Assembly (NCBI GenBank): GCA_010093815.1
Contig: ML996567.1
Strand: one strand, 5' to 3'
Source: Pseudovirgaria hyperparasitica
Lineage: Eukaryota
Length of the DNA: 64,000 nucleotides
Both the position numbers and the translations under genes were made by a program. The notes below the pieces were generated by a model, which saw only the letters and a list, made by a program, of their open reading frames with translations, was not told the origin of the DNA and ran no database searches. This document shows, in pieces, positions 7,024-45,755 of the stretch (position 1 is the stretch's first letter; each line of letters begins with the position of its first letter).

Positions 7024-8288
7024 GTTCTGTATGTATAGTACGCCTCCCTCAGTGATAGAGTCCAGAATATCAACAAGCGAGTCCCCACTTGTCAGCTGTC
7101 AGGTCTCTAATAATGACCCTGTGAGACAACAAGCTCCGCGTCAGAATGAGCCTTGCACAATTACTCTCAGCAGTTTGATAATGAAATCATGGCTGCCTCC
7201 AAAACGAAAAACCCGAATGCTTCTAGACTAATTACCTAGCGAGACAGAAGAGGCCGAACAGACCTAGAGGGACGAATAGCTAGACCCAATCGGAACCTGC
7301 CCGTCCAACCAGGATGCCTAAAAGTAAGTACTGTACATATGTGACTACACGTGACTTGAATTGGTTTTTGGTGCACTATCATTTGATTATCGTTGACCCA
7401 TGTTACTTCATGTTTTGTTTAGAGCATATAGGCTCATGAGTCAGCCCAAGACCTACAGCCTCGAAAAATGGTACATCACGACAATATCGGCTGTTTGCAA
7501 GTGGGTAACGACGGTTGGAACGAATGGCTGCGCATCTGGCTCCCGATTCTTTCTAATTCTACATTTGCGTGCATGGCAATCTTCGAACTTGTCTAGCCTA
7601 TGGCGATCTCTGCTTGTCGGATATCATACGCCCATGATCGTAATCGTATATTGGGCAAAATGACCACCGAGAAGCTTTCAGCTGAGACATCCTCGGAGCG
7701 TATACCTTCGCGAAGCATATCACATTTGATACTATTGCTTTTTTGGAACCGCTATCGACATTTGTATACCGCATAGTGGGTCTGTTCAGGTGTATATATG
7801 TTGCGCCTGGTAGTTACACATATAGGCCGATAGATACAATTTGGCCCGGAGCCAAAGACGAGCGACAGGTATTATTGAAAATAGACAAAAGGTTTTGCAG
7901 GTATGCTAGGAAGCTGCACACCAACGGCTCAGCATGTGACGTGTGAATAGAGACCAAAATGGGAGATATGAGAGCGTGTCTGTCATAAGCAGACATTCGG
8001 CGGCCGAAAAGAGTTTAGAGCAGTACTGATGCCGAATATACAATGGGTGTCCTGCAGGTCTGCGTTTCACCGCAGAATAAACCCATGAGAGCGAACCTAG
8101 AAACGGAACTAGTGCACACAGTCTCACAAAAATAGATATTTTTGCGGAATCATTTTGCAATGACACAAACCGCCAAAAAGTGATGTGTTTCCAAGACGTG
8201 CCTCGACGCCATAGCAGCCTCTGCCTAAAGGACAGCGAAGATGCTTGGAACAATGAACCTCCTACTAGATGTGATATGCCATTCGAGG

Positions 8289-8942
8289 CTATTTGATGTT
8301 GTTGAACAAGTCATCAGCACCCAAGTCACCGCCATCTAATTTCCCCAGCTCTGGAATGGTCGGCGGCGGCGGACCTCTTGCGATCCTTGGCTGTTTTGCG
8401 TTCTCTTTGTCTTGCGTTATGCTTCCATCGTCAGATGTGAACAGCGAACTCTTTCTTTTACTGAACCAGCCTGTACTTTTCCTCTTGCTTAATATTGGAC
8501 TGTTCGGGGCATTGTAGACCGTAGTGCTAGTTCTGGAATCAATTGTATTTGGCGTTGAAGGACGGTCTCGTAGCGAGTCAGAGGAACCGAGGCTTCGTAG
8601 ACCCAGGAAGCGTCGTACTGAGGATGGCCGCTTTGTGGAAGTTATGGGAGACTTTAAGGGTTCTGTCAAGGTGGAATCCGCCTGCGCGAAGGTGTCTATT
8701 GCCTTTGGTGCCCCGTTCTGCTTTTGGTCTGATAATCCGTTTATAGCTGCGCTCCCAAAGTAGCCATTGCCTGTGAAAGTGCCGGACGGGGTGGTAGGGT
8801 GCGACGAGAGAGGTCCTCTGCCGGGAGTGGGAGGACGAGGCTCATCAGGTGAGTCCTGCGGAGGAGGAATATTTGTGCCATCAGTGAGCGACACGTTGAT
8901 CGGGGAGAGGGTGGGAAGCTGGAATTTCCCGTTCTTCGACAT
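8289..8942 (-). CDS. Conserved fungal hypothetical protein, S/P-rich, probably disordered
   Basis: Single ORF from ATG 8942 (MSKNGKFQLPTLSPINVSLTDGTNIPPP) to GGDLGADDLFNNIK. Coding-like composition. Confidence 0.75.
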   Translation of the reverse strand: MSKNGKFQLPTLSPINVSLTDGTNIPPPQDSPDEPRPPTPGRGPLSSHPTTPSGTFTGNGYFGSAAINGLSDQKQNGAPKAIDTFAQADSTLTEPLKSPITSTKRPSSVRRFLGLRSLGSSDSLRDRPSTPNTIDSRTSTTVYNAPNSPILSKRKSTGWFSKRKSSLFTSDDGSITQDKENAKQPRIARGPPPPTIPELGKLDGGDLGADDLFNNIK

Positions 8943-9397
8943 CGTGATTGTTGAGGCGTCGGTCGCGTTTGTTATGTGTGTCGGCTCAGGCTCAAGCGTT
9001 GCGCACGCGTTCAGGGGAGATGATGAGCTTGTCAATCACCTGAGGATACCCTGTGGCGTCGCGACGAAGACACAATTGTAGCTTGAACCGAAAGACAGGA
9101 GAAGGTAGTAATTACCGTGCAGGGGCAGGAAAAGACCGTTGCACTGAGGCGACACAGCAAGGATTGCTTGTTTGGGTTGCCGGATGGCTCTCGTGAGTGG
9201 AGACTTCAGCAAGGGAAGGGTTCGGTTTCGGTTCTCCCGTCTCTCCTGCGCCCGAGTGCCCCCGACTGGCGCTCGTGCGCGCTAATTTAGTGCTCCGCCT
9301 GTGTGAAAAGCAAATATCATTCGCATTAATCCTCCGAACAGACGCCACTCCCAACGTCCTTTCTCATATATATACATATATACATATAGAAATTGAC

Positions 9398-10110
9398 ATG
9401 GAGGATGAAGAAAGCTTACGTCATGGAAGCTTCATGCGTGAGGCTCTCAGTATGGTGGGACCTACTTTACTCACTCGATTCCATACCACATTCGCTGACG
9501 CACTGAAAGGCAGAGCTAGCACTCGAAAGCGACGAAACACCTGTGGGATGCGTTTTTGTGCATGATGGTAAAATTATTGGCAAGGGTATGAACGACACCA
9601 ATAGATCTCTCAATGTAGGTGATTGTCGTGATGCTAACGCCCCATGATTATCTCCGCGCTAACATGGCAAAGGGCACGCGACATGCTGAATTTGTTGCTT
9701 TAGCAGAGATCCTGGCTAAGTACCCACTAAGTATATTGAAAGATACAGATCTGTATGTGACCGTCGAGCCTTGTGTTATGTGTGCCTCAGCACTTCGGCA
9801 GTACGGCATTCGGTTCGTCTATTTCGGATGCTGGAATGAAAGATTTGGTGGAACAGGCGGGGTTTTGAATATTCATGATGAGTGAGTATATATGTCTGTA
9901 TGCAACCGTGTCTGAAGTCCCAGATGATAACATTGCGCAAGCCCTTCCGTCGACAAGTCGCTGCCTGTTAGAGGCAACATATTTCGAGAAGAAGCCATCA
10001 TGCTCCTGCGCCGATTCTATGTTCAGGAGAACGAAAAGGCGCCAGCACCTAAGCAAAAGAAAACGCGCGAACTCAAGACGGCGATCACGCCGCTGGAGTT
10101 CAAGAAGTGA
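9398..10110 (+). CDS. TAD2: tRNA-specific adenosine-34 deaminase catalytic subunit, 4 exons
   Basis: FMREALSM|AELALESDETPVGCVFV, HAEF, LYVTVEPCVMCASAL (HxE...PCxxC deaminase motif), NERFGGTG, LLRRFYVQENEKAP. Confidence 0.93.
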
Positions 10111-10184
10111 TTCCGAGACACCCTTTGTATCCAACTGACGAGGTCAACGTATATCCCATTGGTGGCCATCAATATCGACATAGC

Positions 10185-11869
10185 TCAATTCGAGCTATCG
10201 GTACCTGTCTTATCCAACACGTGGCTAAGAAGCTTGCTCAATGAATCCGAGCACCGCTTCTTATCGCGTATGTGTGCGAGAAGTGGCATGTCCGCCTTGA
10301 TCTCATCGACGACTTCTTCTAGGCACCCCTCTAGTACCTTTCGCATTCCCTTGTCCGCCTCCATCGATTGATCGTGCAATGGGTCTTTGAAGAATGTTCC
10401 CAATGATCGAGCGAGAGTGGCGTATGGGATCGGTCGCAGTGCCTCAATTTTTAGTTTCACATGCTCCATAATATTGGCTAATGCTCTATGCGACGCAATT
10501 CTCCAGACATACGTGCACTCAGTAAGAGCAAGTCGCTTTTCTTTGTCGGAGAGCGCTGCCTTCGGGCAGAGTGTCTGGGTCTTCCAGTCGACTAGATGAG
10601 GTGCAAAGTCCCCCTCTGTGACGATATCGTGAATGAGAGAAAAGTGTCTTGGGTCAATGGCACTCCAAGTTGCGGACTTGATGACATAACCTCGTTCTGG
10701 GTCCTTCGTTTTGGTATTACTGAGACCCCATGATTCAACTACTTTGGCATCAAACACGAAGTCCTTACTTGGGACTTGCTGACCACTGGACGTCAGACCG
10801 CCACCGATCATCAAAGTTACTTTTCGATTGTTGAGTCTACGTCATGTTAGTATATGTTTGTCACGGAAAGTTTGAAGATTTTACACTCGTCTCCATTTGG
10901 CTGCAATCTTCGCCTGTGTGAAAGGATCACTGACGTTCGGCGGAGGAGACTGGCTGACCGGGCGGTCTTCCTCATCCTCCTCATTCTCGGTTTCGTCGCT
11001 ACTTACTTCGACCGACGACAGCTCTTCAATATCATCGTATGCGATCCTAGCTTGGTTCTGGGAATCGGTGAGCCTAGAGTGAGCTTCAGAAGGTAACGCC
11101 ACCCTTGGGTCATAGATTGTCATTTGGCCATGCTCTAGAGGAACTCTAATGAGAGCGTTCAAATGGTGGTCAGACTTTGCTCCAACATCGAAAACGTCCT
11201 TACAGGTCTTCTTTGCTACTGGGGCTGACATTTCGACCTTACTTTTCCGCTTAGCATCACCACAAGTCAGAGCCTTCGGCAGTTCAACTGATGCTCGTAG
11301 ACCGAAACGGGAAGTCAGATCAGTGGTCGTCACGGCCTTTGAGAATCGTGTGGGACATGGCAACGACTCATTACTATTGAACCTAACCCCGTCCTTGGCC
11401 ACTGACTGAGGGTGATCCGGTTCCAGCTTTCTGACCTCAACAATCATGCAGTCGTCCTCGGCTGGCTCTTTTATAGCCATCACCGCTTCCCAGTACTTCA
11501 AATCAGGATAACCACCGTTGGTCGTCTGTACCATATTGTGTGCATGAGCATTCTCCAAGAGCTTTTGCACAGGTGGATAGTCGTAGGGGCTCAAGTCTCT
11601 TGGCTTCACCCATATTCTATGACTATCATCAGTGTCGAAGATATGTTGATGTCCAAGAGACTTATTTACCTTTGTATGTTCCTCTTGGCTAGCCGCAAGA
11701 CTGCAATTGAGTCATGCTCTGGTCTTTGTTGTTCGCCAGTCATCTTCTCCGAAGTTGATACTATTACTGGCCAGGCTGGAACTTCGCCTGTCCACAGATA
11801 ATATTTTCCTAGAGAGATCTCTACGGTATGCATTGGCTCCGCCAATAGGTGAGGTACATGGTCTTCCAT
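10185..11869 (-). CDS. Lineage-specific hypothetical protein, 3 exons, C-terminal part resembles a divergent BTB/POZ-type region
   Basis: ORFs 11666-11869, 10881-11609 and 10185-10814 can be joined by short GT-AG introns. The C-terminal IDPRHFSLIHDIVTEGDF...YVWRIA...IMEHVKLKI pattern is reminiscent of fungal BTB-like proteins. Confidence 0.6.
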
Positions 11870-35085: not shown

Positions 35086-35646
35086 ACATGTAAGTACAAG
35101 ACGGAAAAACGAGGTAAAAGCTGCATTGCGAAGGCGTATTGGGTTTACATGCTACAAGCACTACGGTGAAGAGCACAATCTCCACAACTTTGGATATGAT
35201 ATCAAAAGAATATTCACAAAGCCATAAATACTCGCGAGATTGTATGCAGCTAAACATCAGGTGCACTTACTATGATCACTCGGCTCTTATGTTCCAGATG
35301 AGCCTACGGAGCATTGATCTGGGGACACTTTGCTGCCTGAAATATGCCTGATATGTCCCCAGACTAATGGTCCTCCTCTAGCTCATTATCTTAGCCTGGA
35401 CCCTGGCCGCTGTTACTAATTTAGTCAGCGCGTGGGCACAGAGTTAGAGATGACGCCACGCGTAGATGCTTCCCGAAACCATGTGCGTGAACTGCAATTG
35501 TCAGCGCTTGAGATTAAGATAGGTACTTGTGCTGCGCAACTCTTCAGACCTACCATGATATCCGACACTACGTATGAGACCTCCACCGTAACACCTTACA
35601 AGTCTCCGTCTGCGAGTTTCTCGCCCACAAGTGCGCCACATAGAAC

Positions 35647-37998
35647 ATGACCTCAAGCCCAGGTGTATCCCTGAAGTGGTCCACGAAGTACGTTGTCGAT
35701 TCCAGCACCTCCCGAACTGCGAAGCTACCCGGCGATAAGATTCTCCTTCCTCCATCTGCGCTCGAACAGCTGATCGCAGCAGCTCCTGTTGTATCTTCTG
35801 ACGCCGAGATCCGTACGAACACGACCAACTTCGACCCTTCGAATCCCTACGTGTTTGCGGCCGAAAGATATGCGCGAGCGCCTTACCAAGACCGACAACC
35901 ACAACTACCACATCCGCTCACTTTCAGGCTTGTCAATCCCGATAGTGGGCGTATAATCTATGCGGGCATACGGGAGTTCTCGGCGGAGGAGGAGACAGTA
36001 GTGTTGAGCAAATATCTTCGCGACCGGTTGGGATACTCGGATCCTGCGCACAATGAGGATTCACAGATGACAAATGGGTTCAGTGAGGATGGGGATCATA
36101 CGGCCCACACTGAAACATTAACAGTTTCTGTACAGCAACTTCCGAAAGGAACTTATGTGAAGCTACGACCCCTTGAGGCAGGATACGATGTCGAGGACTG
36201 GAAGGCGCTGCTAGAGCAACATCTCCGATCTAATTTCACTACTTTGACGAACGGTGACGAGTTGGTGGTACCGGTGCCGAATAGCAGGGGTAAGAGTGAA
36301 GAGTTTAGGTTTCTTGTGGATGGGTTTAAGCCGGAGAGCGATGCAATCTGCATAGTTGATACGGACCTGGAGGTGGATATTGAGGCACTGGACGAAGAGC
36401 AGGCTAGAGAGACGTTGAGAAGAATTGCCGCGAAGTTACACAAGGCACCGGGGAGTGCGGATGGTAGTTCGCCTGGTGGAGAATTACCGTTCATGCAGAC
36501 GGTCAGTGGGCAAGTCTTGGAAGGAGAGTACGTTGATTATGATCTGAATTCGTGGGATCGCTCCCAGGGCTTGGAGATCCAGCTCATACCCAATAACGAC
36601 GACGACGAACTTGATCTTTTCGTCAGCCCGTTTTCGACCAGGCAACGAGCCAGACCGAGAGAAGACGAGCATGTTTTTGCAGAGGTTTCCTCAACTTATC
36701 CAAAGATCGTCAGCATTCAACCGACGAATGTGGAGCTGGAAAATGCTGAGTCTCTACGCATCAGCGTATTAGCCTACTCGGCTGGAACGCCAGGTTCTAT
36801 AAATGAGTCGCTCTCGCCAAAAGCATTCACCCTACGAGCCTCTCCTATTGCTAGCGTCCACGATAGCAATAAGACAAATAGCGCACAAGAAGAATCACAA
36901 CACGACCCCAATGATGTTAAATGCGACAACTGCAATCGCTATGTCCCCAAGACTTCTCTCTTCCTCCACCAGAACTTCTGTCTCCGCAACAACATCCTCT
37001 GCCCGCGCGGCTGCGCTCAAGTCTTCCAAAAGCGCTCCCCCGAATACGCCGCTCACTGGCACTGCCCGCACGACTCCAGCTTCGGCAATACCCCCCTAAG
37101 CAAATCAAAGCACGACGCCCTCTACCACACCCCAACAACCTGCCCCTCCTGCTCCCTCCCCTTCACCACCCTCCCCGAACTCGCACACCACCGCGTCACA
37201 GAGTGCCCGGGCAAGCTCATCCTCTGCCAATTCTGCCACCTCGAAGTCCCACAAGAAGGCGACCCCACCCAGCCCCCAGACGCTGAAGTCCTCATCTCCG
37301 GCCTCACCCCGCACGAAGTCGCCGACGGCGCCCGCACAACGGAATGCCATCTCTGCAACAAGATTGTGCGCCTGCGCGACATGGCCACTCACATGCGCCA
37401 CCACGACTTCGAGCGTTCGGCCCGGCCCGTGCCGCGGCTCTGCCGCAATCTGCTCTGCGGCCGCACGCTGGACGGGGTCAACAAAGCCGGCGACACGCGT
37501 GCCGGCACGCGCCAGGGCCAAGGCCCGGGTAATGATATGGGCCTATGCAGTATTTGCTATAGCCCGCTGTACGCGGGACTGCATGATCCCGAGGGCAAGG
37601 CGCTCAGACGACGGGTCGAGAGGCGCTATCTCGGCCAGCTCATGACCGGGTGTGGGAAGGCCTGGTGCGCGAACCAGATGTGTCGGACGGGCAGGAAGAC
37701 GGCGACTGGGGTGGATAAGGCGGTCAGTATGAAGGACGGCGTCCCGCTCGTGAGGCCGTATCTGGAGGGCCTCCTGGTAGGCGCGGGGGAGTGGAGCACG
37801 CCGCTGCATTTCTGCGTTGATGAGGGCAGTCAGAAGAGGAGGGTGATGGCGGAGATGATTGCGGCTGAGCCGGGTGTGGATGCGAAGGCGGGCTATGCGG
37901 AGGAGTGGTGTGTTGCTGCGCTTGAGGCGGAGATGGGCAGTATAGATGGCGCGAGGACGTGGTTGAAGAATTGGGCGCCGAGGAGGGGCGAGCGGTGA
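35647..37998 (+). CDS. UFD1-domain protein with TRAF/C2H2-like zinc fingers and AZUL (E3A N-terminal Zn-binding)-like domain
   Basis: GDKILLPPSALEQL, GIREFSAEE, LPKGTYVKLRP, ALLEQHLRSNFTTLT, IVDTDLEVDI, many CxxC/H motifs, YLGQLMTGCGKAWCANQMC. Confidence 0.9.
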   Translation: MTSSPGVSLKWSTKYVVDSSTSRTAKLPGDKILLPPSALEQLIAAAPVVSSDAEIRTNTTNFDPSNPYVFAAERYARAPYQDRQPQLPHPLTFRLVNPDSGRIIYAGIREFSAEEETVVLSKYLRDRLGYSDPAHNEDSQMTNGFSEDGDHTAHTETLTVSVQQLPKGTYVKLRPLEAGYDVEDWKALLEQHLRSNFTTLTNGDELVVPVPNSRGKSEEFRFLVDGFKPESDAICIVDTDLEVDIEALDEEQARETLRRIAAKLHKAPGSADGSSPGGELPFMQTVSGQVLEGEYVDYDLNSWDRSQGLEIQLIPNNDDDELDLFVSPFSTRQRARPREDEHVFAEVSSTYPKIVSIQPTNVELENAESLRISVLAYSAGTPGSINESLSPKAFTLRASPIASVHDSNKTNSAQEESQHDPNDVKCDNCNRYVPKTSLFLHQNFCLRNNILCPRGCAQVFQKRSPEYAAHWHCPHDSSFGNTPLSKSKHDALYHTPTTCPSCSLPFTTLPELAHHRVTECPGKLILCQFCHLEVPQEGDPTQPPDAEVLISGLTPHEVADGARTTECHLCNKIVRLRDMATHMRHHDFERSARPVPRLCRNLLCGRTLDGVNKAGDTRAGTRQGQGPGNDMGLCSICYSPLYAGLHDPEGKALRRRVERRYLGQLMTGCGKAWCANQMCRTGRKTATGVDKAVSMKDGVPLVRPYLEGLLVGAGEWSTPLHFCVDEGSQKRRVMAEMIAAEPGVDAKAGYAEEWCVAALEAEMGSIDGARTWLKNWAPRRGER

Positions 37999-38547
37999 TT
38001 TATTCTCGGGTGTGAGGGCGGTGGAGGGGAGGGGACGGCGTTGTTGACGGAGCTGGTGTGGTGGTGCATATATGGCTCGAACGACTCGATCTTGTTCTAT
38101 ACATCCTATTTGAGGAGCATATACATAAGGCAGGATTACTATAAATTACGAGCATTCAGAGAAGCATACCCTCTATCTCCTAGTTTATCACGTAGCACTT
38201 TCCATCCATACACGCCGTAGCTCGATTAGGATATCTAGTACGCAATGATATGGACACTACTTATCCATTGATGCTTTTTGAGGTCTAGGCCAGCTTTTTT
38301 CTGGCTCATGCTACATGTTCTGGAGGCTACCTAGTGACGAGTAAATGCATTCATCTTGACGGTCTTCTACATTGGCTACAGGAAACGCCTTATGCAAAGT
38401 AAGTAATTCAAAATGGGATGGTGTATTACTACTATGTCATACCGTGTAATATCAACATACGGCCTAAAGCAAACTTTCAAATTATAATAATAGGAAGGTC
38501 TTATGAGAGTATAAAGAGAAATAGGACAGTGTCAAGTGAGACCACTT

Positions 38548-40794
38548 TCAAGAGGCCTTGAGTTCGGACACAGTGGCTGGAATGCCGGCAAGACCACTAA
38601 CGCTTCTTCGAGAAGCACTGGAGTTGGACATTTGCCGCTGTAAAGACGACGTGGAGAATTCTGATACTGGTGGCGATGAGGGTGGACTGGGTGGGTGATG
38701 GTTCTGGGGCGGTGGCACGAATGAAACCCGAAAGCTCGTCTCTTGGGTCGATTTCGACTCCCGAAGCCTCTGTCTCGATCGGATTGCTTCGAGTTCCTCG
38801 CGTATATCTGATGCCAGCGGCCGTTTTCCGGGATCCTTTGTCAAGATTGCGAGAATGAGATCCTTGCATTCTACAACCCATTGTTGCCTCGGTGCCTCAC
38901 ATCTTGTGGGTAGAAGATTCAACCACTTCACAATTGAAGGCTTGATCTCACCGTAGTTCGACGGGCTTCTGCTGTGGAACGAGGGCCCTTCTGTGTCGTC
39001 ACCTCTCGCGACTTGGCGAAGTTCTTCGATGAGTGCTGGGTCGACGGCGAAAGTGACGACCTCGATAAGGATACAGCCGAGTGACCATATGTCTGCCCTA
39101 CGAGCATGGATTGGATTCTGCCCTTGGGCGCCCAGCCGATCCAGTTCGGGTGCGGTAAAGGTACCTTTCCCGCGTTTGGGTGAAGTCTTGCGTCCAGGAA
39201 TTTGAGTCTGGACAGATAGTGCAGTCCCCGAGTCTAAATATAGCGCTCTGTCGTGCTGGTCTGGGTGACTCATATGTGTTGCCCTCCTAGGCGATCCGGA
39301 GTGCGCAGATACGGGCGAGGGAGTCCTGCTCATTGGACGTCTGAGAGAGTCTGGTTGGCCTTGAAGGTCCTCATTGAGTCTCTCATATGACAGTACACTG
39401 GATCCCGCCTTTGGACTGTCCCGTTTCGGCTTGATACGAGAAATTCCGAAGTCTGTGATTTTCCACTTGCCCACAGGGTAGCGGTGAGTAGGCGTAGGTT
39501 CATCGGGGACGAATACGAGGATATTCTCAGGCGTCAAATCGTTATGTGAGCGACTTAGCATCGCACTATCATAAAGCCCATTGTGTAGAAAGTCGAGTGC
39601 ATCGGCGATGCTTTTGCATTGGTCGATGAGGTCCATCGATCCATAGAGATGAGAGTTGTTCCGTCCAAAAGGCGAACAGCCTCGACGCGTTGTCCTAGAG
39701 TCAGCTGGGCTCTTCGAAAGAAAATAATTCAGATCGAAATCAGCCAGATCGTACAATATTCTGTACCATTTCGTATGGACAGGATGATCCTCTACAAGGA
39801 TGGCAAAATTGACCAAAATGTGGTCATGCTTGCTCAAGCTTCGTCGAAGCTTTTTGAGGTTCTGAATCTCTTCGTAAAGAACGTCTTTGGCCATAATGTT
39901 CTTACACGCCACGGCGTACGGCTACGAAAATAGTCAATAAGAATCTGAAAAGAAGTAGAAAGGTTATAGGAGACCACTAACCTTTCTGGTGAAAGTAACA
40001 AGTGTTCCATCACTGTACTTCAAATGTCCAGCAGCGATCACCTCCTTCGTGACCGAGGCGGTAGCTCCCTCGCCGATTTTTTCACTGGCTTGGGTGAAAG
40101 GTAACGGGCTGCAAAACCCTTGACCAAGATGGATCTCCTCATGAAACCGCGTTATGACCAAAGGACAAAATGCCCACTGGAACTTGTAAAATGGAACTGC
40201 ATGTGCTCTGAGGAAATGAGGTTGGTTTAAAGCCTCTTTGTTAAATGGCAAATACTCATCCGACCGCTGCATGTTCTCGTTAAAGACTCGCGGTAGGCTG
40301 TCCCAATCTGAGTATTTGCAGAGGGTAAGTATCATCAAAATCTTCAGGTACGGGGTGATATAATTGACGGAAGCACAGAAATGAATATACCATCTTTGAC
40401 CTGCGTAGAAATGCTTGTGCTTTCGCCAGAAGGATTGGACCTCGCTATCGGGAAATATTTCTCCCCTATCAAACCTTTCGTTTAGTTCGTCGTGGATGTC
40501 CTGATACTTTTCAGCCCATCTGACCGGGTCTATCTGAGGTACAGGACTGTAAGGCTCCGGATTGGTCTGCTGGGCTGGTAGGTCACTTTTATGCGCTGTG
40601 ACTAATGTCGTTGGTGTCGCCGGTTGTGGTGTCGCATCTACTTGCGATATGAATGTGTTCCGATTCTCATAGCGATTACTGTTAGAGGTGGTAGGCTGCG
40701 CCGTGAGAATCAACTCGTGTTTGCGCCTGGTATCTTGTCGCGCTCTGATTCTCCGCTTCCACCACCGCTGAACAGATATGGGGAAGGATTTCAT
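38548..40794 (-). CDS. Divergent fungal Ser/Thr protein kinase-like protein (possibly decaying), 2 exons
   Basis: IGEGATASV (Gly loop), intron 39922-39981, AVACK, SHNDLTPENIL, WKITDFGISR, GTFTAPE, ADIWSLGCI, DPGKRP. Start and true C-terminus are uncertain. Confidence 0.85.
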
Positions 40795-41111
40795 GTCGTG
40801 GAGCTCCGTTCATTCGGGGAGATGATAGACTCGTCTGCAGTCTGCGACTGAAAATTCACTAGAAAGGTCATGAACTTTGCACGATATGCAAAACTTATGT
40901 AGCATGTGTGAGTACAGAGAAGTAGTAAGTTGCCACAAGGCTGTGCTGTAGGCTTATATCAACCTCCTCGAAGCCCCAAGGCGTGTCACAGGAAGCGCAC
41001 ATTTCCAGGTAACTGTGACCGGTCAGAGGCTTATCAATGATTTCACTTCGACGCTTGTGCTTGCAGGGGAGGGGGGGTACGCAGGATCTCAGCCTGCTTA
41101 CTTTTGGTGCA

Positions 41112-41456
41112 ATGCCAAACCAATATCACCATGTTATAACGTCTGGTAGCGCAATATATATCTACGAAGAAGACCTTCAGGCTTTTTTTCAAGTACTTCC
41201 GAGCCTAGGGGCACGAAGCGCTTTCATATTGTTGTAGGTACGTGCCAGCGAGGGTATATTTTGTACTGACATTGTCAGATGAGACGCGACTGTTGGATTT
41301 TCTGCGCCCGAGAGGAAATCCAACATGTTGTCTTGCATATGCAAACCCGTTTACATTTTGGACCTAGGAGGCATTTGAGTGAGTGTCCGACTCGTGATGG
41401 AGTTGAGAAACTGAACGTATAGCGAAATTTCAAAGAGAGCTCCAGCTACTGGCTAG
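41112..41456 (+). pseudogene. Spliced micro-gene (~70 aa) with an in-frame TAG at the end of exon 1
   Basis: MPNQYHHVITSGSAIYIYEEDLQAFFQVLPSLGARSAFILL* is followed at once by a GTACGT donor, TACTGAC branch and CAG acceptor (41238-41278), then MRRDCWIFCAREEIQH. A further GTGAGT..TAG intron lies at 41379-41422. Confidence 0.5.
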
Positions 41457-41873
41457 TATGTTGACTGAGCGCATCCTCAGAGTCGAGACTTGTGCAGCTG
41501 GCTGAGTTGGACTTGATGGCCTGGTAACAGAGTATGGGGTCGAGTGGTTCACGGAAAGTGGTAGAGCCAATCAAATGAAATCTTTCGAAGCAGCGTGTCC
41601 TAAGCTCGTGGAATGCTTATATACCCCCCTTTTTTCCAATTAGATAGTAATTGCAGCAGCCTGCTGGGGGCGGTTTGCCACCAATGTACGATAAGCTACA
41701 GCCAGAAAGAAGCAACCCACAAAAGATCGTGCTAGACGCAGCGAGCTCTCTGACCGCTAAACAGGCTGCGAGGTGATACCGATGACCAGGATTTGACGGC
41801 CACGTTGTAATGATATTGAAGATTTCTCCTGGACCTGGACACACTCTTCAGTTACAGAACAGCATTCTCAGTT

Positions 41874-43439
41874 ATGACAGTGACGCAAGCGCAAATCGAC
41901 GTGCCAAGACAACCCTTCAACATTGAAAGCAATGTCCTCTTTCAATAACTCGAGGCTGATACAGGGAAAGTGTTCGAATCATCAGGAGCACTTCACATAT
42001 CCGTGTTGTACATCAAAGGTCAGTTAGTCGGTGCTCACTCGATCAACATGCTGACGTTGTGAAATGCATAGATAGTGGCGAACACAGCCATAGTTGCATA
42101 GTGGACGAGGTTCCAGAGGACGTAATTCAGCAACTTCGTGAAGTGGGTAGCTATGTCCTCCAAACTATGTATGTACGCAGGCTAAGAGGCGTACCACTGA
42201 GCTGGCTCTGCAGCTCGGTTTTCTAAAAGTTCTCACAGAGTCGCATACAATGCACAAAGAGCACAATGATCGCTATGCTCAATGAGAGTTCGATATTCTT
42301 TCGACGTTCCTTGAAGTTCTGTTATGATTTGAGAATCGTCTACGGGTCTTCGGAAGCTCATCAAGCACTGTGCACTGGCATCAAGAAAATAGCAGCGCCT
42401 TCGGTTTGTGGGAAATCCGGGTAGGTTGTTATGAATGCTGAATAATGTATAGATAATAGCTACCAATTCGTGTATGTAGAACGTAGCGGAGACAGACGGG
42501 AGTATTCCACAGCCATCGGAGCGGAAAAGACTCGTTCCTAATGCTTCATCCTCGAAATGCACCGGCAGCTCACAAATGGCTCGAAAGATACTGTGCAGAT
42601 ACTGCAAGCAGCCGCGCTCTTCAGTCGCCTCCTATGAACGTTCATCGAGTCCTGCTATCTTCATTTTTGCATCTGTGGCGAGATCAGATTGAAGCCTTCA
42701 GTTTTGGTATAGCAACAACGGTAATACTCGCTCTGCTTTGCAGTGATAATCACTCAATGTCGATGTAGACACTTTCGAGGCCGAGCACCTCCAGGATATG
42801 CGGCGTTTGGAAGATAAAATCGGCTGCAGAACGATGAAATGCTTGAAAAGTACCAGGACTCTCATTGCCACGCTTTTAACTATATGCGATGGACTTCATA
42901 GTCGGAATACAAATTTTTTCAAGATGACGTCGAGAGCGAAATGGAGGTTGGGCAACCTCAGCCAATAGGTGGAGGAGGACATCAGCTCTGCAGAGATCCT
43001 GGAAAGGAGAGTGCAAGCGACCTTTGGGCTGGTGAATGACCAAAGGGACGTGTAGGATCAATCGTCCAACTGACTATGTCTTGTGTCCAGCTCGCAGACC
43101 TCCTCGATCATCGAAGTCAGGTAGCATCGTCTGACATGAACAAGTCCATGTACAGTCTCACGCGCAAAAGTGTTGATGATAGCGCTACGGTGCGTGTGAT
43201 TACGGTATTCACGCTGATCTATCTTCCAGCTTCATTCATAGCAACGGTGCTTGAGACGAATCTCTTCAAATTCCAGGATGATAGTGAAGCACTTCGGATC
43301 CCTCCCCAACTCTGGATTTACGTTGCGGTGGCGTTGCCGTTGACATTTCTGACTGTGGGGCTGGTGGGTTTTCAAGACGAGGCATGACAACAAAGGTCAA
43401 GACGAGGAGACAATTCAGCGGCATCTTTCATGTGCATAG
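41874..43439 (+). pseudogene. Fungal CorA-like (two C-terminal TM) membrane protein pseudogene, ~6 exons
   Basis: C-terminal DSATVRVITVFTLIYLPASFIATVLETNLFKF...LWIYVAVALPLTFLT, upstream YQFVYVER/RQTGVFHS, MNVHRVLL..WRDQI. In-frame stops at 41946, 42224, 42325 and 42966; apparent frameshifts near 42285, 42490 and 43360. Confidence 0.8.
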
Positions 43440-43893
43440 ATTGATTTAGGTGTGTAGGCCGCTATTTTGGGGATAATAGGCCTGGGTCAGCGATAATGAG
43501 ACAACCTATCAAACCTTCGTGTAAGCGTGTATTGGCTGAATACTTTTTAGATTTGGTGATGACCGAGACGCGGCAGCACGCTGAGGATAGTGCTACGATA
43601 TGGTGACTGACTATCGGACAACTACTAATAGGTAGAGGCTTTGATTGTCCGGAATGGAAAGAGATGCTGGGTGCATTACCTAGAAAATCGTTGGGATCAG
43701 TGCATTTGGTCCGTGCAATCATCGGAGACCCTTGATGTTGAGGGCGATCTTTACTGGTTATGGCGAACCGGTGGTGGCATCCGTCATCGAGGGTCCGATA
43801 ATTGCCCCTCAGTTTGCGTCTACAAATAAATTTGATTTCCATCGAGGACAACACAGACCTTTGCTATCACTTCACGATTTACACACAACCATA

Positions 43894-45755
<1,862 letters not shown>

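Follow-up and report, generated by a model that had tools for sequence, protein, structure and literature searches.

The 64,000-nucleotide stretch of Pseudovirgaria hyperparasitica contig ML996567.1 analysed here (the window) contains a protein kinase gene and, head-to-head with it and about 1.1 kb apart, the remnant of a gene for a CorA-like membrane protein, a locus that probably represents a decayed version of a two-gene module which is conserved in filamentous ascomycetes and consists of a kinase and a CorA-fold channel. In this module, the first gene would provide a Ser/Thr-type kinase with a characteristic N-terminal domain (hereafter the N-domain), present in the window as an intact and spliced gene for 728 aa, while the second would provide a CorA-fold protein with two transmembrane (TM) helices (PF26616 and PF01544), of which the window would keep a transcribed remnant. 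By likeness to CorA, the intact CorA-like proteins would form pentameric cation pores and, where both genes are intact, the kinase would act on the cytoplasmic domain of the pentamer, in this way controlling the opening of the pore. This direct control of the channel by the kinase is the tentative part of the proposal, plausible but with the balance slightly against it. In P. hyperparasitica, described in an excerpt of PMC3317363 as a mycoparasite of rust sori, the channel partner would have been lost, with the kinase surviving alone. The two genes are located as follows:

38548-40794, minus strand: kinase gene, whole, with two exons and one intron
41874-43412, plus strand: CorA-like pseudogene, with family homology detectable over 42230-43412

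Data on their expression were obtained from contigs of two public runs (X1 and X2), which come from one sample of one study and probably from the same strain. The kind of these runs is unrecorded, and they are taken as transcript-derived on the grounds that nine intron-like stretches with canonical ends between 38000 and 44600 are missing from their contigs, whereas genomic contigs would retain introns. Over the CorA-like locus and its surroundings, these contigs cover 41668-42672 and 42728-43712 with 0 differing letters and 0 gaps, cover being absent at 41590-41667 and 42673-42727. In the literature, no kinase/CorA-like gene pair was found to be described in fungi, and no publication was found that combines the terms 'CorA-like' and 'Pezizomycotina'.

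The kinase gene and its family

The coding sequence of the kinase comprises 728 codons, is intact, and exhibits no signs of decay. It is made up of two open frames of the minus strand (39964-40809 and 38548-39921), which are joined through a single intron:

40794-39982, minus strand: exon 1, 271 codons, with a disordered leader, the helical N-domain (residues ~90-210), and the beginning of the N-lobe of the kinase (G-loop IGEGATASV)
39981-39922, minus strand: intron, 60 nt, GTTAGT..TAG, with the joint 39921>39982 in one contig each of X1 and X2
39921-38548, minus strand: exon 2, 457 codons and the stop, with the bulk of the kinase domain (VAxK Lys, HND, DFG, APE) and a Ser/Pro-rich tail

Exon 2 matches the Pfam family Pkinase with an E-value of 2.7e-12 (47.1 bits, for a cut-off of 31.7) as well as PK_Tyr_Ser-Thr (E 4.7e-8). 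An earlier, sequence-only reading of this DNA had placed a minus-strand kinase at 38548-40794, and these limits have proved exact, with the intron skipped in both runs. The public P. hyperparasitica protein P0028 is 100% identical to residues 1-271 of exon 1, and the public model is only 363 aa long, leaving the 728-aa frame after ...KWYRIL and ending shortly beyond. The homologues and the unspliced contigs over 38467-39921 support the 728-aa model, P0028 being truncated through a spurious splice.

In an alignment with 13 relatives, the window kinase presents the beta-3 Lys, the alpha-C Glu, the HND motif, the Asn, and the DFG and APE motifs. Its catalytic loop reads HNDLTPEN, with a Thr (codon 39534-39532, minus strand) at a position which is occupied by Lys in 12 of the 13 relatives and by Arg in the remaining one. 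The catalytic-loop Lys of Ser/Thr kinases contacts the gamma-phosphate, and the activity of the window kinase may, to judge from this residue, be altered. Relative to the other proteins, the activation segment holds an insertion of about 45 residues. The window kinase also accounts for 11 of the 24 single-sequence departures at otherwise invariant columns of the alignment; relaxed selection on the kinase was considered on these grounds and rejected, because the alignment has the window species as its outgroup (taxonomic outlier). An 89-nt minus-strand intron (41013-41101) precedes the kinase ATG in a contig which runs from the kinase body to 41589. The gene probably has a long (~700 nt), intron-bearing 5' leader that overlaps the transcription of the plus strand, taking into account that unstranded contigs can merge the transcripts of both strands.

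A word-indexed search retrieved at least 42 relatives of the kinase among 8000 candidates, the best of them with 31-37% identity and mostly from Dothideomycetes, including ankyrin-bearing proteins from Aspergillus. Identity in the family reaches 31-40% within a class. Although Pfam assigned no family to exon 1, its N-domain was matched, over residues ~108-263, by 89 representative proteins at E<=1e-3 (32 of them at E<=1e-10) in an exhaustive HMMER search. The kinase domain lies directly behind the matched region in 18 of the 21 long representatives scanned, and the exon 1 region is therefore an N-terminal extension specific to this kinase family. Ankyrin repeats were found C-terminally in four of these 21 proteins, and also in P0034, P0029, and P0133. 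In P0199 (798 aa, from a metagenome), a weak NACHT-type match (NPHP3_N, E 7.5e-4, below the cut-off) lies behind the N-domain kinase; this protein may be an NLR-like relative of the N-domain kinases.

The N-domain can be summarised by the pattern W..F..IF...R.D..LPF....L....FL.......F...Q..F.P, with invariant W, L, W, F, F, and P columns that the window kinase has as well. Judged by these residues, the window kinase is a member of an unnamed family of Pezizomycotina kinases, in which a predicted helical domain of about 120 residues precedes the kinase domain, and whose named members belong to the Dothideomycetes, Eurotiomycetes (Aspergillus), Leotiomycetes, and Geoglossomycetes. The AlphaFold2 (AF2) model of exon 1, with a predicted local distance difference test (pLDDT) score of 78.1, is helical over residues 90-210. 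Comparison of the N-domain model with the Protein Data Bank (PDB) by Foldseek yielded nothing at E<=0.001 (best E 2.9), the VIA wide structure search yielded nothing at Z>=5, and the best value for the N-domain in the ESM Atlas was 0.77, under the lead level of 0.9. SAM domains occupied 10 of the 50 best VIA rows for residues 146-212 of the exon 1 model (Z 3.0-4.0, rmsd ~2.4-2.7 over 60-62 residues), and the best match of the search, at Z 4.0 over residues 146-211, was also to SAM domains; a SAM-like helical sub-domain is possible, though the likeness is too weak to call. The solved structures nearest to the family profile, which they match weakly, are receptor kinases of the TKL type (activin receptor type-1, E 5.6e-9).

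Some members of the family exhibit a different N-terminal feature. MGxCxS-type starts resemble the consensus for myristoylation and palmitoylation (dual acylation), and an MGxCx[ST] start was observed in 10 of the 118 family members that begin with Met, while 16 of them begin with MGxxx[STAGCN]. Many of the MGxCxS starters are from Dothideomycetes (for example, P0002, P0005, P0006, P0010, and P0143). Six of the 13 full-length proteins in a 13-protein family alignment have myristoylation-like starts, and one more has it at an internal Met. Such starts would fit a membrane-proximal kinase. The window kinase begins MKSFPIS, without a myristoylation-like start.

CorA-like proteins and their linkage to the kinases

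A profile search with eight relatives of the CorA-like protein returned at least 54 proteins of this family among 7998 candidates. PF26616 was assigned to most of them from the precomputed Pfam annotation, as the Pfam scan made here gave no PF26616; the cut-off of PF01544 (27) is passed by P0044 (33.7 bits) and P0043 (30.6 bits), P0048 being below it (18.1 bits). The AF2 model of P0044, based on an eight-sequence alignment (pLDDT 74.5), was matched by Foldseek to 71 PDB chains at E<=0.001, the best being Thermotoga maritima CorA (8tmj_B, E 2.3e-10, ~400 columns). According to this model, the intact relatives have a predicted CorA fold, with a cytoplasmic alpha/beta domain, a long stalk helix, and two C-terminal TM helices. 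At the sequence level, the family profile reached CorA among the PDB sequences at E 0.33, with a match confined to the TM1 motif, and did not match any Mrs2 sequence of the PDB at E<=1, while TIGR00383 gave P0044 24.9 bits for a cut-off of 200.75. With these values and the presence of PF26616, the proposal of the sequence-only reading that the CorA-like protein stands apart from ordinary CorA/Mrs2 transporters holds at the level of sequence.

The family can thus be compared with well-known channels. CorA/MIT Mg2+ channels (T. maritima CorA; 8tmj, 3jcf, 4i0u, and 2bbj) share the whole architecture with the intact relatives, including a GMN motif ending TM1. However, the sequence likeness of the fungal proteins is limited to TM1 and this motif, and their cytoplasmic part corresponds to the fungus-specific PF26616. 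In addition, the fungal family shows GTN and GME variants of the motif and has a dedicated kinase gene linked to it; the copy in the window is dead and reads ETN. Alr1/Mnr2 (plasma membrane and vacuole) and Mrs2/Lpe10 (mitochondria) are likewise fungal members of the superfamily with a GMN pore, although Mrs2 differs in that none of its solved sequences is matched by the fungal profile. The housekeeping genes for Alr1, Mnr2, Mrs2, and Lpe10 are not known to stand beside a dedicated kinase.

The motif was examined in 59 relatives, and reads GMN in 45, GTN in five, and GME in one, being unreadable in the other eight (truncated or mis-spliced models). The pore glycine is kept in all 51 readable relatives and the Asn in 50 of them. 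Going by these counts, the Met and Asn positions tolerate change in the family, while the glycine does not. GME was observed in two otherwise intact-looking relatives, P0080 and the metagenome locus L002 (8522-8719), and GTN in five.

Both genes were retrieved from at least eight named species, in a small census based on word-indexed searches and cluster look-ups. Their accessions are consecutive in five of the eight:

Plenodomus lindquistii: kinase KAI8933032 (NX059_009681), CorA-like KAI8933033 (NX059_009682); consecutive, locus tags too
Pleomassaria siparia: kinase KAF2708727, CorA-like KAF2708726; consecutive
Zopfia rhizophila: kinase KAF2182450, CorA-like KAF2182449; consecutive
Lentithecium fluviatile: kinase KAF2676497, CorA-like KAF2676498; consecutive
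Alternaria rosae: kinase KAH6879292, CorA-like KAH6879291; consecutive
Polyplosphaeria fusca: kinase P0157, CorA-like P0069; each on a 539,846-nt contig
Aspergillus campestris: kinase PKY00579, CorA-like PKY00575; same contig, four accession numbers apart
Cudoniella acicularis: kinase P0187, CorA-like P0051; different contigs (20,416 and 51,826)

Two further cases were found outside this list. The Aspergillus udagawae model P0133 (1287 aa) unites CorA (353-466), the N-domain, Pkinase (710-994), and ankyrin repeats in one protein, and clusters at 90% identity with CorA-like proteins of 485-486 aa from three other A. udagawae strains. From this fused model, it follows that both genes are in tandem on one strand in A. 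udagawae. In the metagenome locus L002, a CorA-like gene (7180-8719; match to P0043 with E 3.6e-56, pore motif GME) and, behind it, an N-domain kinase gene (9312-11821) share one strand. The sequence-only reading had suggested that such neighbourhoods recur in Pezizomycotina, which these cases bear out for the kinase and the CorA-like gene.

L002 was one of the 56 loci obtained in a metagenome scan with the kinase profile, of which only L001 and L002 are close relatives, the other 54 being generic kinases; L001 ends within the kinase and its 2.6 kb upstream hold another gene, so that it is uninformative on linkage. A further metagenome contig, L041, contains a second, distant divergent pair, with a 524-aa protein (7166-8740, minus strand) and a kinase (9536-11761, plus strand) about 800 bp apart. 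The protein has a CorA-like C-terminus (tblastn E ~1e-6) with SIQ in the place of GMN, and the kinase is an ordinary one that reads HRDLKPLN and lacks the N-domain. The association between kinases and CorA-like proteins may be wider than one family.

The orientation of the pair varies, being tandem in A. udagawae and L002 and divergent in the window, while adjacency persists across Dothideomycetes and Eurotiomycetes. Gene order in these fungi scrambles fast. Since the orientation changes across classes while the pair persists, its retention by chance is unlikely, and the conservation of the pair looks like selection for linkage, which would be unlikely for unrelated genes. That one CorA-like subfamily has kept a dedicated kinase gene at its side in at least two classes, inversions notwithstanding, points to a phosphorylation-controlled pore. 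Filamentous fungi contain many CorA-like paralogues beside their housekeeping Mg2+ transporters, and the linked kinase offers a first concrete handle on the role of these proteins; should the partner be a regulated cation channel, this would represent a new mode of CorA control.

It has also been considered that the pair could constitute a regulated-cell-death or defence module, in which a sensor kinase (with ankyrin repeats in Aspergillus) would open a CorA-fold pore and kill or depolarise the cell, in analogy to RIPK3/MLKL and to the fungal two-gene death clusters, the dead copy reflecting the usual turnover of such loci. The resemblance to the fungal clusters (NLR with HeLo/HELL, or protease with gasdermin) and to the animal RIPK3-MLKL pair consists of a signalling enzyme encoded beside a membrane-acting protein, together with fast-evolving and patchily found relatives, ankyrin repeats on kinases, and loss by pseudogenisation. 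The C-terminal ankyrin repeats and the weak NACHT-type match of P0199 described above, the small and fast-evolving kinase family, and the pseudogenised partner in the window all speak for this possibility. However, HeLo, HELL, gasdermin, HET, NACHT, and the amyloid motif were not found by Pfam in the kinase, in exon 1, or in the CorA-like relatives, and the partner has a CorA fold instead. The strict pore motif (G[MT]N in 50 of 51) is no less fitting for a selective channel than for a killer pore. The portion consulted of a 2025 review of fungal regulated cell death (PMC12881547) deals with two- and three-gene clusters and with kinase-containing proteins, and contains no mention of CorA or of a CorA-fold partner. 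Taken together, a role in cell death is considered rather unlikely; if it were true, the pair would bring a new executioner fold into fungal immunity, parallel to the bacterial CorA effectors.

Two other systems deserve comparison in this respect. Bacterial type III CRISPR systems include prokaryotic CorA-family effectors that are activated by nucleotide second messengers and represent the membrane output of signalling. The likeness to the fungal pair lies in the use, proposed here, of the CorA fold as an output of signalling rather than for Mg2+ supply, while the fungal system would differ in being eukaryotic and in relying on a kinase; moreover, the PADLOC models of CRISPR-type CorA proteins match the fungal proteins only marginally (E 0.0049 and 0.0039) and only in the TM region, which also counts against the cell-death reading. 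In animals, TRPM6 and TRPM7 couple a divalent-cation channel to its own kinase, fused in one polypeptide. They differ from the fungal pair in their folds, a TRP channel and an alpha-kinase unrelated to the CorA and kinase folds here, and in that the fungal genes are separate neighbours.

An even broader proposal, which must be regarded as improbable on what is at hand, is that the N-domain kinases and the PF26616 CorA-fold proteins form an ancient undescribed 'kinase-gated pore' system, acting in cell death triggered by non-self or stress, or in membrane signalling. The kinase would be the sensor or activator, with ankyrin repeats, other C-terminal extensions, or an MGxCxS start depending on the lineage, and the CorA-fold pentamer would be the executioner. 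Such a system would be a eukaryotic counterpart of the type III CRISPR CorA effectors and a functional analogue of RIPK3-MLKL, and in this mycoparasite, where the kinase is alive and the pore dead, the module would have been caught in the course of its dismantling.

The opposite view, by which the two genes are neighbours merely through inherited synteny and without any functional link, is quite improbable. In its favour, the five consecutive cases are all from related Dothideomycetes, the Cudoniella genes are on different contigs, and the window kinase survives without its neighbour. It is contradicted by the adjacency in A. udagawae (Eurotiomycetes, fused model), in L002, and in the window, and by the differing orientation among the cases, with chance retention across classes being unlikely where gene order scrambles fast.

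Several of these observations nevertheless weigh against the module of kinase and channel favoured here. Adjacency was read from GenBank numbers and locus tags rather than from DNA, and consecutive numbers indicate neighbouring coding sequences only by the usual practice of numbering along a record, a practice on which the cases of A. udagawae, L002, and the window do not rely. The five adjacencies, of Pleosporales type, could all descend from a single synteny block; in A. campestris three accessions stand between the two genes, and in Cudoniella the genes are on separate contigs. P0133 could be an annotation read-through, as three other A. udagawae strains have a separate CorA-like protein, and of 127 kinase-family proteins checked, not one had a CorA-like part. 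Contact between kinase and channel, or phosphorylation of the latter, is itself only a proposed step. Finally, as the kinase is open over 728 codons beside a dead partner, it must have a role without this neighbour or work with an unlinked paralogue; its function would be independent of the neighbour unless such a paralogue exists. No second copy of the kinase or of the CorA-like gene was found in the 64-kb window. A complex prediction for the Plenodomus kinase (residues 60-590) and CorA-like protein (residues 1-458), made without controls and with a score of 0.00, speaks neither for nor against their contact.

The CorA-like pseudogene

The CorA-like locus is a transcribed pseudogene, whose homology to the family is real. 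Its open reading frame (ORF) at the 3' end (43040-43387) has 10 relatives among 344 candidates, with 45-57% identity (54-57% to P0043-P0045), nine of which hold PF26616 ('CorA-like transporter domain') and six of which also hold PF01544. No public protein of at least 203 aa was found to contain this ORF, the best match being 57% identical. When eight intact relatives were compared with 40801-43900 by tblastn, colinear matches were obtained over ~42215-43360, which switch frame and include stop codons inside the alignments. A family profile built from eight intact relatives was then used in hmmsearch against the six-frame pieces, with the following matches:

42230-42361, frame 2: profile positions 98-136, E 0.094
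42458-42502, frame 2: profile positions 157-171, E 0.31
42490-42702, frame 1: profile positions 177-249, E 2.3e-14
42765-42917, frame 0: profile positions 269-318, E 1.5e-6
42972-43043, frame 0: profile positions 337-360, E 5.4e-4
43088-43360, frame 2: profile positions 356-447, E 2.8e-42, 138 bits
43359-43412, frame 0: profile positions 448-465, E 0.19

The remnant is colinear with PF26616-bearing proteins over profile positions 98-447. Pfam itself returned nothing at E<=0.01 on the CorA-like ORF pieces of the window, so that PF01544 is unmatched there. The parts of the pseudogene are the following:

41874-42229, plus strand: 5' part, in which the ORF from ATG 41874 ends after 24 codons at TAA 41946-41948
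42230-43031, plus strand: body, profile positions 98-360
43032-43090, plus strand: predicted intron, 59 nt, GTGAAT..CTGAC..CAG, retained in contigs
43091-43412, plus strand: 3' part, with the end of the stalk helix, TM1 (VRVITVFTLIYLPASF), ETN, TM2, and a basic tail (WWVFKTRHDNKG...)

In the 5' part, two plus-strand introns (42019-42071 and 42143-42213) are skipped in contigs, and a TAA (42224-42226) follows in the homologous frame just past the second acceptor. Homology to the poorly conserved N-terminus of the family was not detectable over 41874-42229 by the profile search, which makes the ancestral start uncertain. Further downstream, frameshifts occur near 42480-42490, 42703-42765, and 43355-43360, the last of which puts the basic tail in another frame, and in-frame stops separate homologous segments of the same frame at TAG 42422-42424, TAA 42443-42445, and TAG 42966-42968. 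Other stops are found at 41946-41948, 42224-42226, and 42744-42749 (TGA/TAA), where the homology is too weak for the frame to be certain. The predicted intron at 43032-43090 restores the phase between ...ATFGL and LADLLDHRSQ, and this is the only frame change that an intron explains. When the transcript was spliced as in the contigs and translated in three frames, no long ORF appeared. In total, at least three frameshifts and at least three in-frame stops, about 6-7 disabling lesions, have accumulated in ~1.1-1.2 kb; it is on these that the locus is held to be a pseudogene, and where the contigs cover them they are repeated letter for letter. Inside it, contigs of both runs skip 42673-42727, a stretch of 55 nt with CT..AC ends; since such ends are canonical for a minus-strand intron alone, they suggest that the 3' half is covered by a spliced antisense transcript.

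These data modify what the sequence-only reading had proposed for this part of the locus. Its multi-exon CorA-like gene at 41874-43439 stands as regards homology, while as an intact gene it falls, with its sequence distributed over three frames, interrupted by stops, and devoid of a long ORF. It had also described joint decay of the kinase, the CorA-like gene, and a micro-gene between them, but only the CorA-like gene is disabled. The replacement of GMN by ETN is present as reported (GAG ACG AAT, 43253-43261), although not as a functional feature of the family, in which every readable relative keeps the glycine; from this comparison, ETN is a lesion of a dead copy and no family trait. With its pore gene reduced to a pseudogene, the module cannot work in this genome in the way that had been proposed.

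It is very improbable that the CorA-like locus still makes a product, either a 103-aa mini-protein with two TM helices from ATG 43076 (on unspliced RNA), or a full protein, if splicing were unusual or stops were read through. The last 91 codons (43088-43360, 138 bits) are indeed free of stops and frameshifts, and the contigs cover the locus and retain the 59-nt intron which contains ATG 43076. Nevertheless, with ~6-7 lesions per ~1.1 kb, a stretch of 273 nt is estimated to remain unhit by chance about once in five cases, the invariant pore glycine is gone, the basic tail is frameshifted, and ATG 43076 lies far downstream of many short ORFs. As for unusual splicing, the sole extra joint in the body is that of 42673-42727, with CT..AC ends, and it does not restore the frame. 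Even more remote is the idea that the frameshifts and stops are assembly errors hiding an intact and active three-gene module, for which there is nothing beyond the gene models of the sequence-only reading. Against it, each lesion covered by the X1 and X2 contigs (from one sample, probably of the strain in the window) reads in them exactly as in the window, no protein with the 3' ORF is present in the public annotation, and the micro-gene model is not reproducible.

Spacer, annotation, and flanking genes

The region between the two genes and those that flank the locus contain the following features:

40795-41873, both strands spliced: spacer (contig joints, ORF enumeration)
35644-37998, plus strand: UFD1-like flank ORF, with UFD1_N1/N2, DUF7590, and XAF1/TRAFD1 zinc fingers (Pfam)
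44433-45755, plus strand: PGM (phosphoglucomutase) flank ORF (Pfam)

In the spacer, contigs skip 41234-41278 on the plus strand (45 nt, GT..AG, one X1 contig) and, on the minus strand, 41013-41101 (89 nt, X2) and, weakly, ~41362-41414 (X1). The sequence-only reading had described here a spliced micro-gene of ~70 aa at 41112-41456. Its 45-nt intron exists, but not its ORF: from ATG 41112, 41 aa are encoded either way, with the spliced form ending at TGA 41280-41282 (...FILL) and the unspliced one at TAG 41235-41237, and 66 aa are obtained from the upstream ATG 41037. Enumeration of all downstream GT..AG pairs of 40-80 nt as a second intron gave no ORF of at least 55 aa. No relatives of the micro-ORF were found, the best value in the ESM Atlas being 0.85 (under the lead level of 0.9), and a search for a relic of an N-terminal CorA-like exon in the spacer found none (best profile E 1.6). 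In five other genomes, nothing is annotated between the kinase and CorA-like genes, which is a weak argument, as tiny genes are often missed. The micro-gene is no gene of the module but a short ORF, and the spacer around it is spliced on both strands; the three-gene unit of the sequence-only reading is therefore not upheld, with the micro-gene lacking coding support and the kinase and CorA-like accessions being consecutive in five species.

In the annotation of this genome, the CorA-like gene should be marked as a pseudogene, the 728-aa model should take the place of the public 363-aa kinase, and no micro-gene should be called. The Rfam scan of 38000-44000 gave zero families, and no repeats were found in the same region.

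The sequence-only reading had also named two housekeeping genes, UFD1-like and PGM, as flanks, an identification that Pfam corroborates. In PGM, the contigs skip two introns, 43947-44089 and about 44390-44443. The UFD1-like neighbour (35644-37998, plus strand) is an unusual fusion, which also holds an AZUL-like zinc domain behind the UFD1 N-domains and DUF7590, and the 3' kilobase of its ORF has a GC content of 0.64-0.66, versus ~0.47 in its surroundings.

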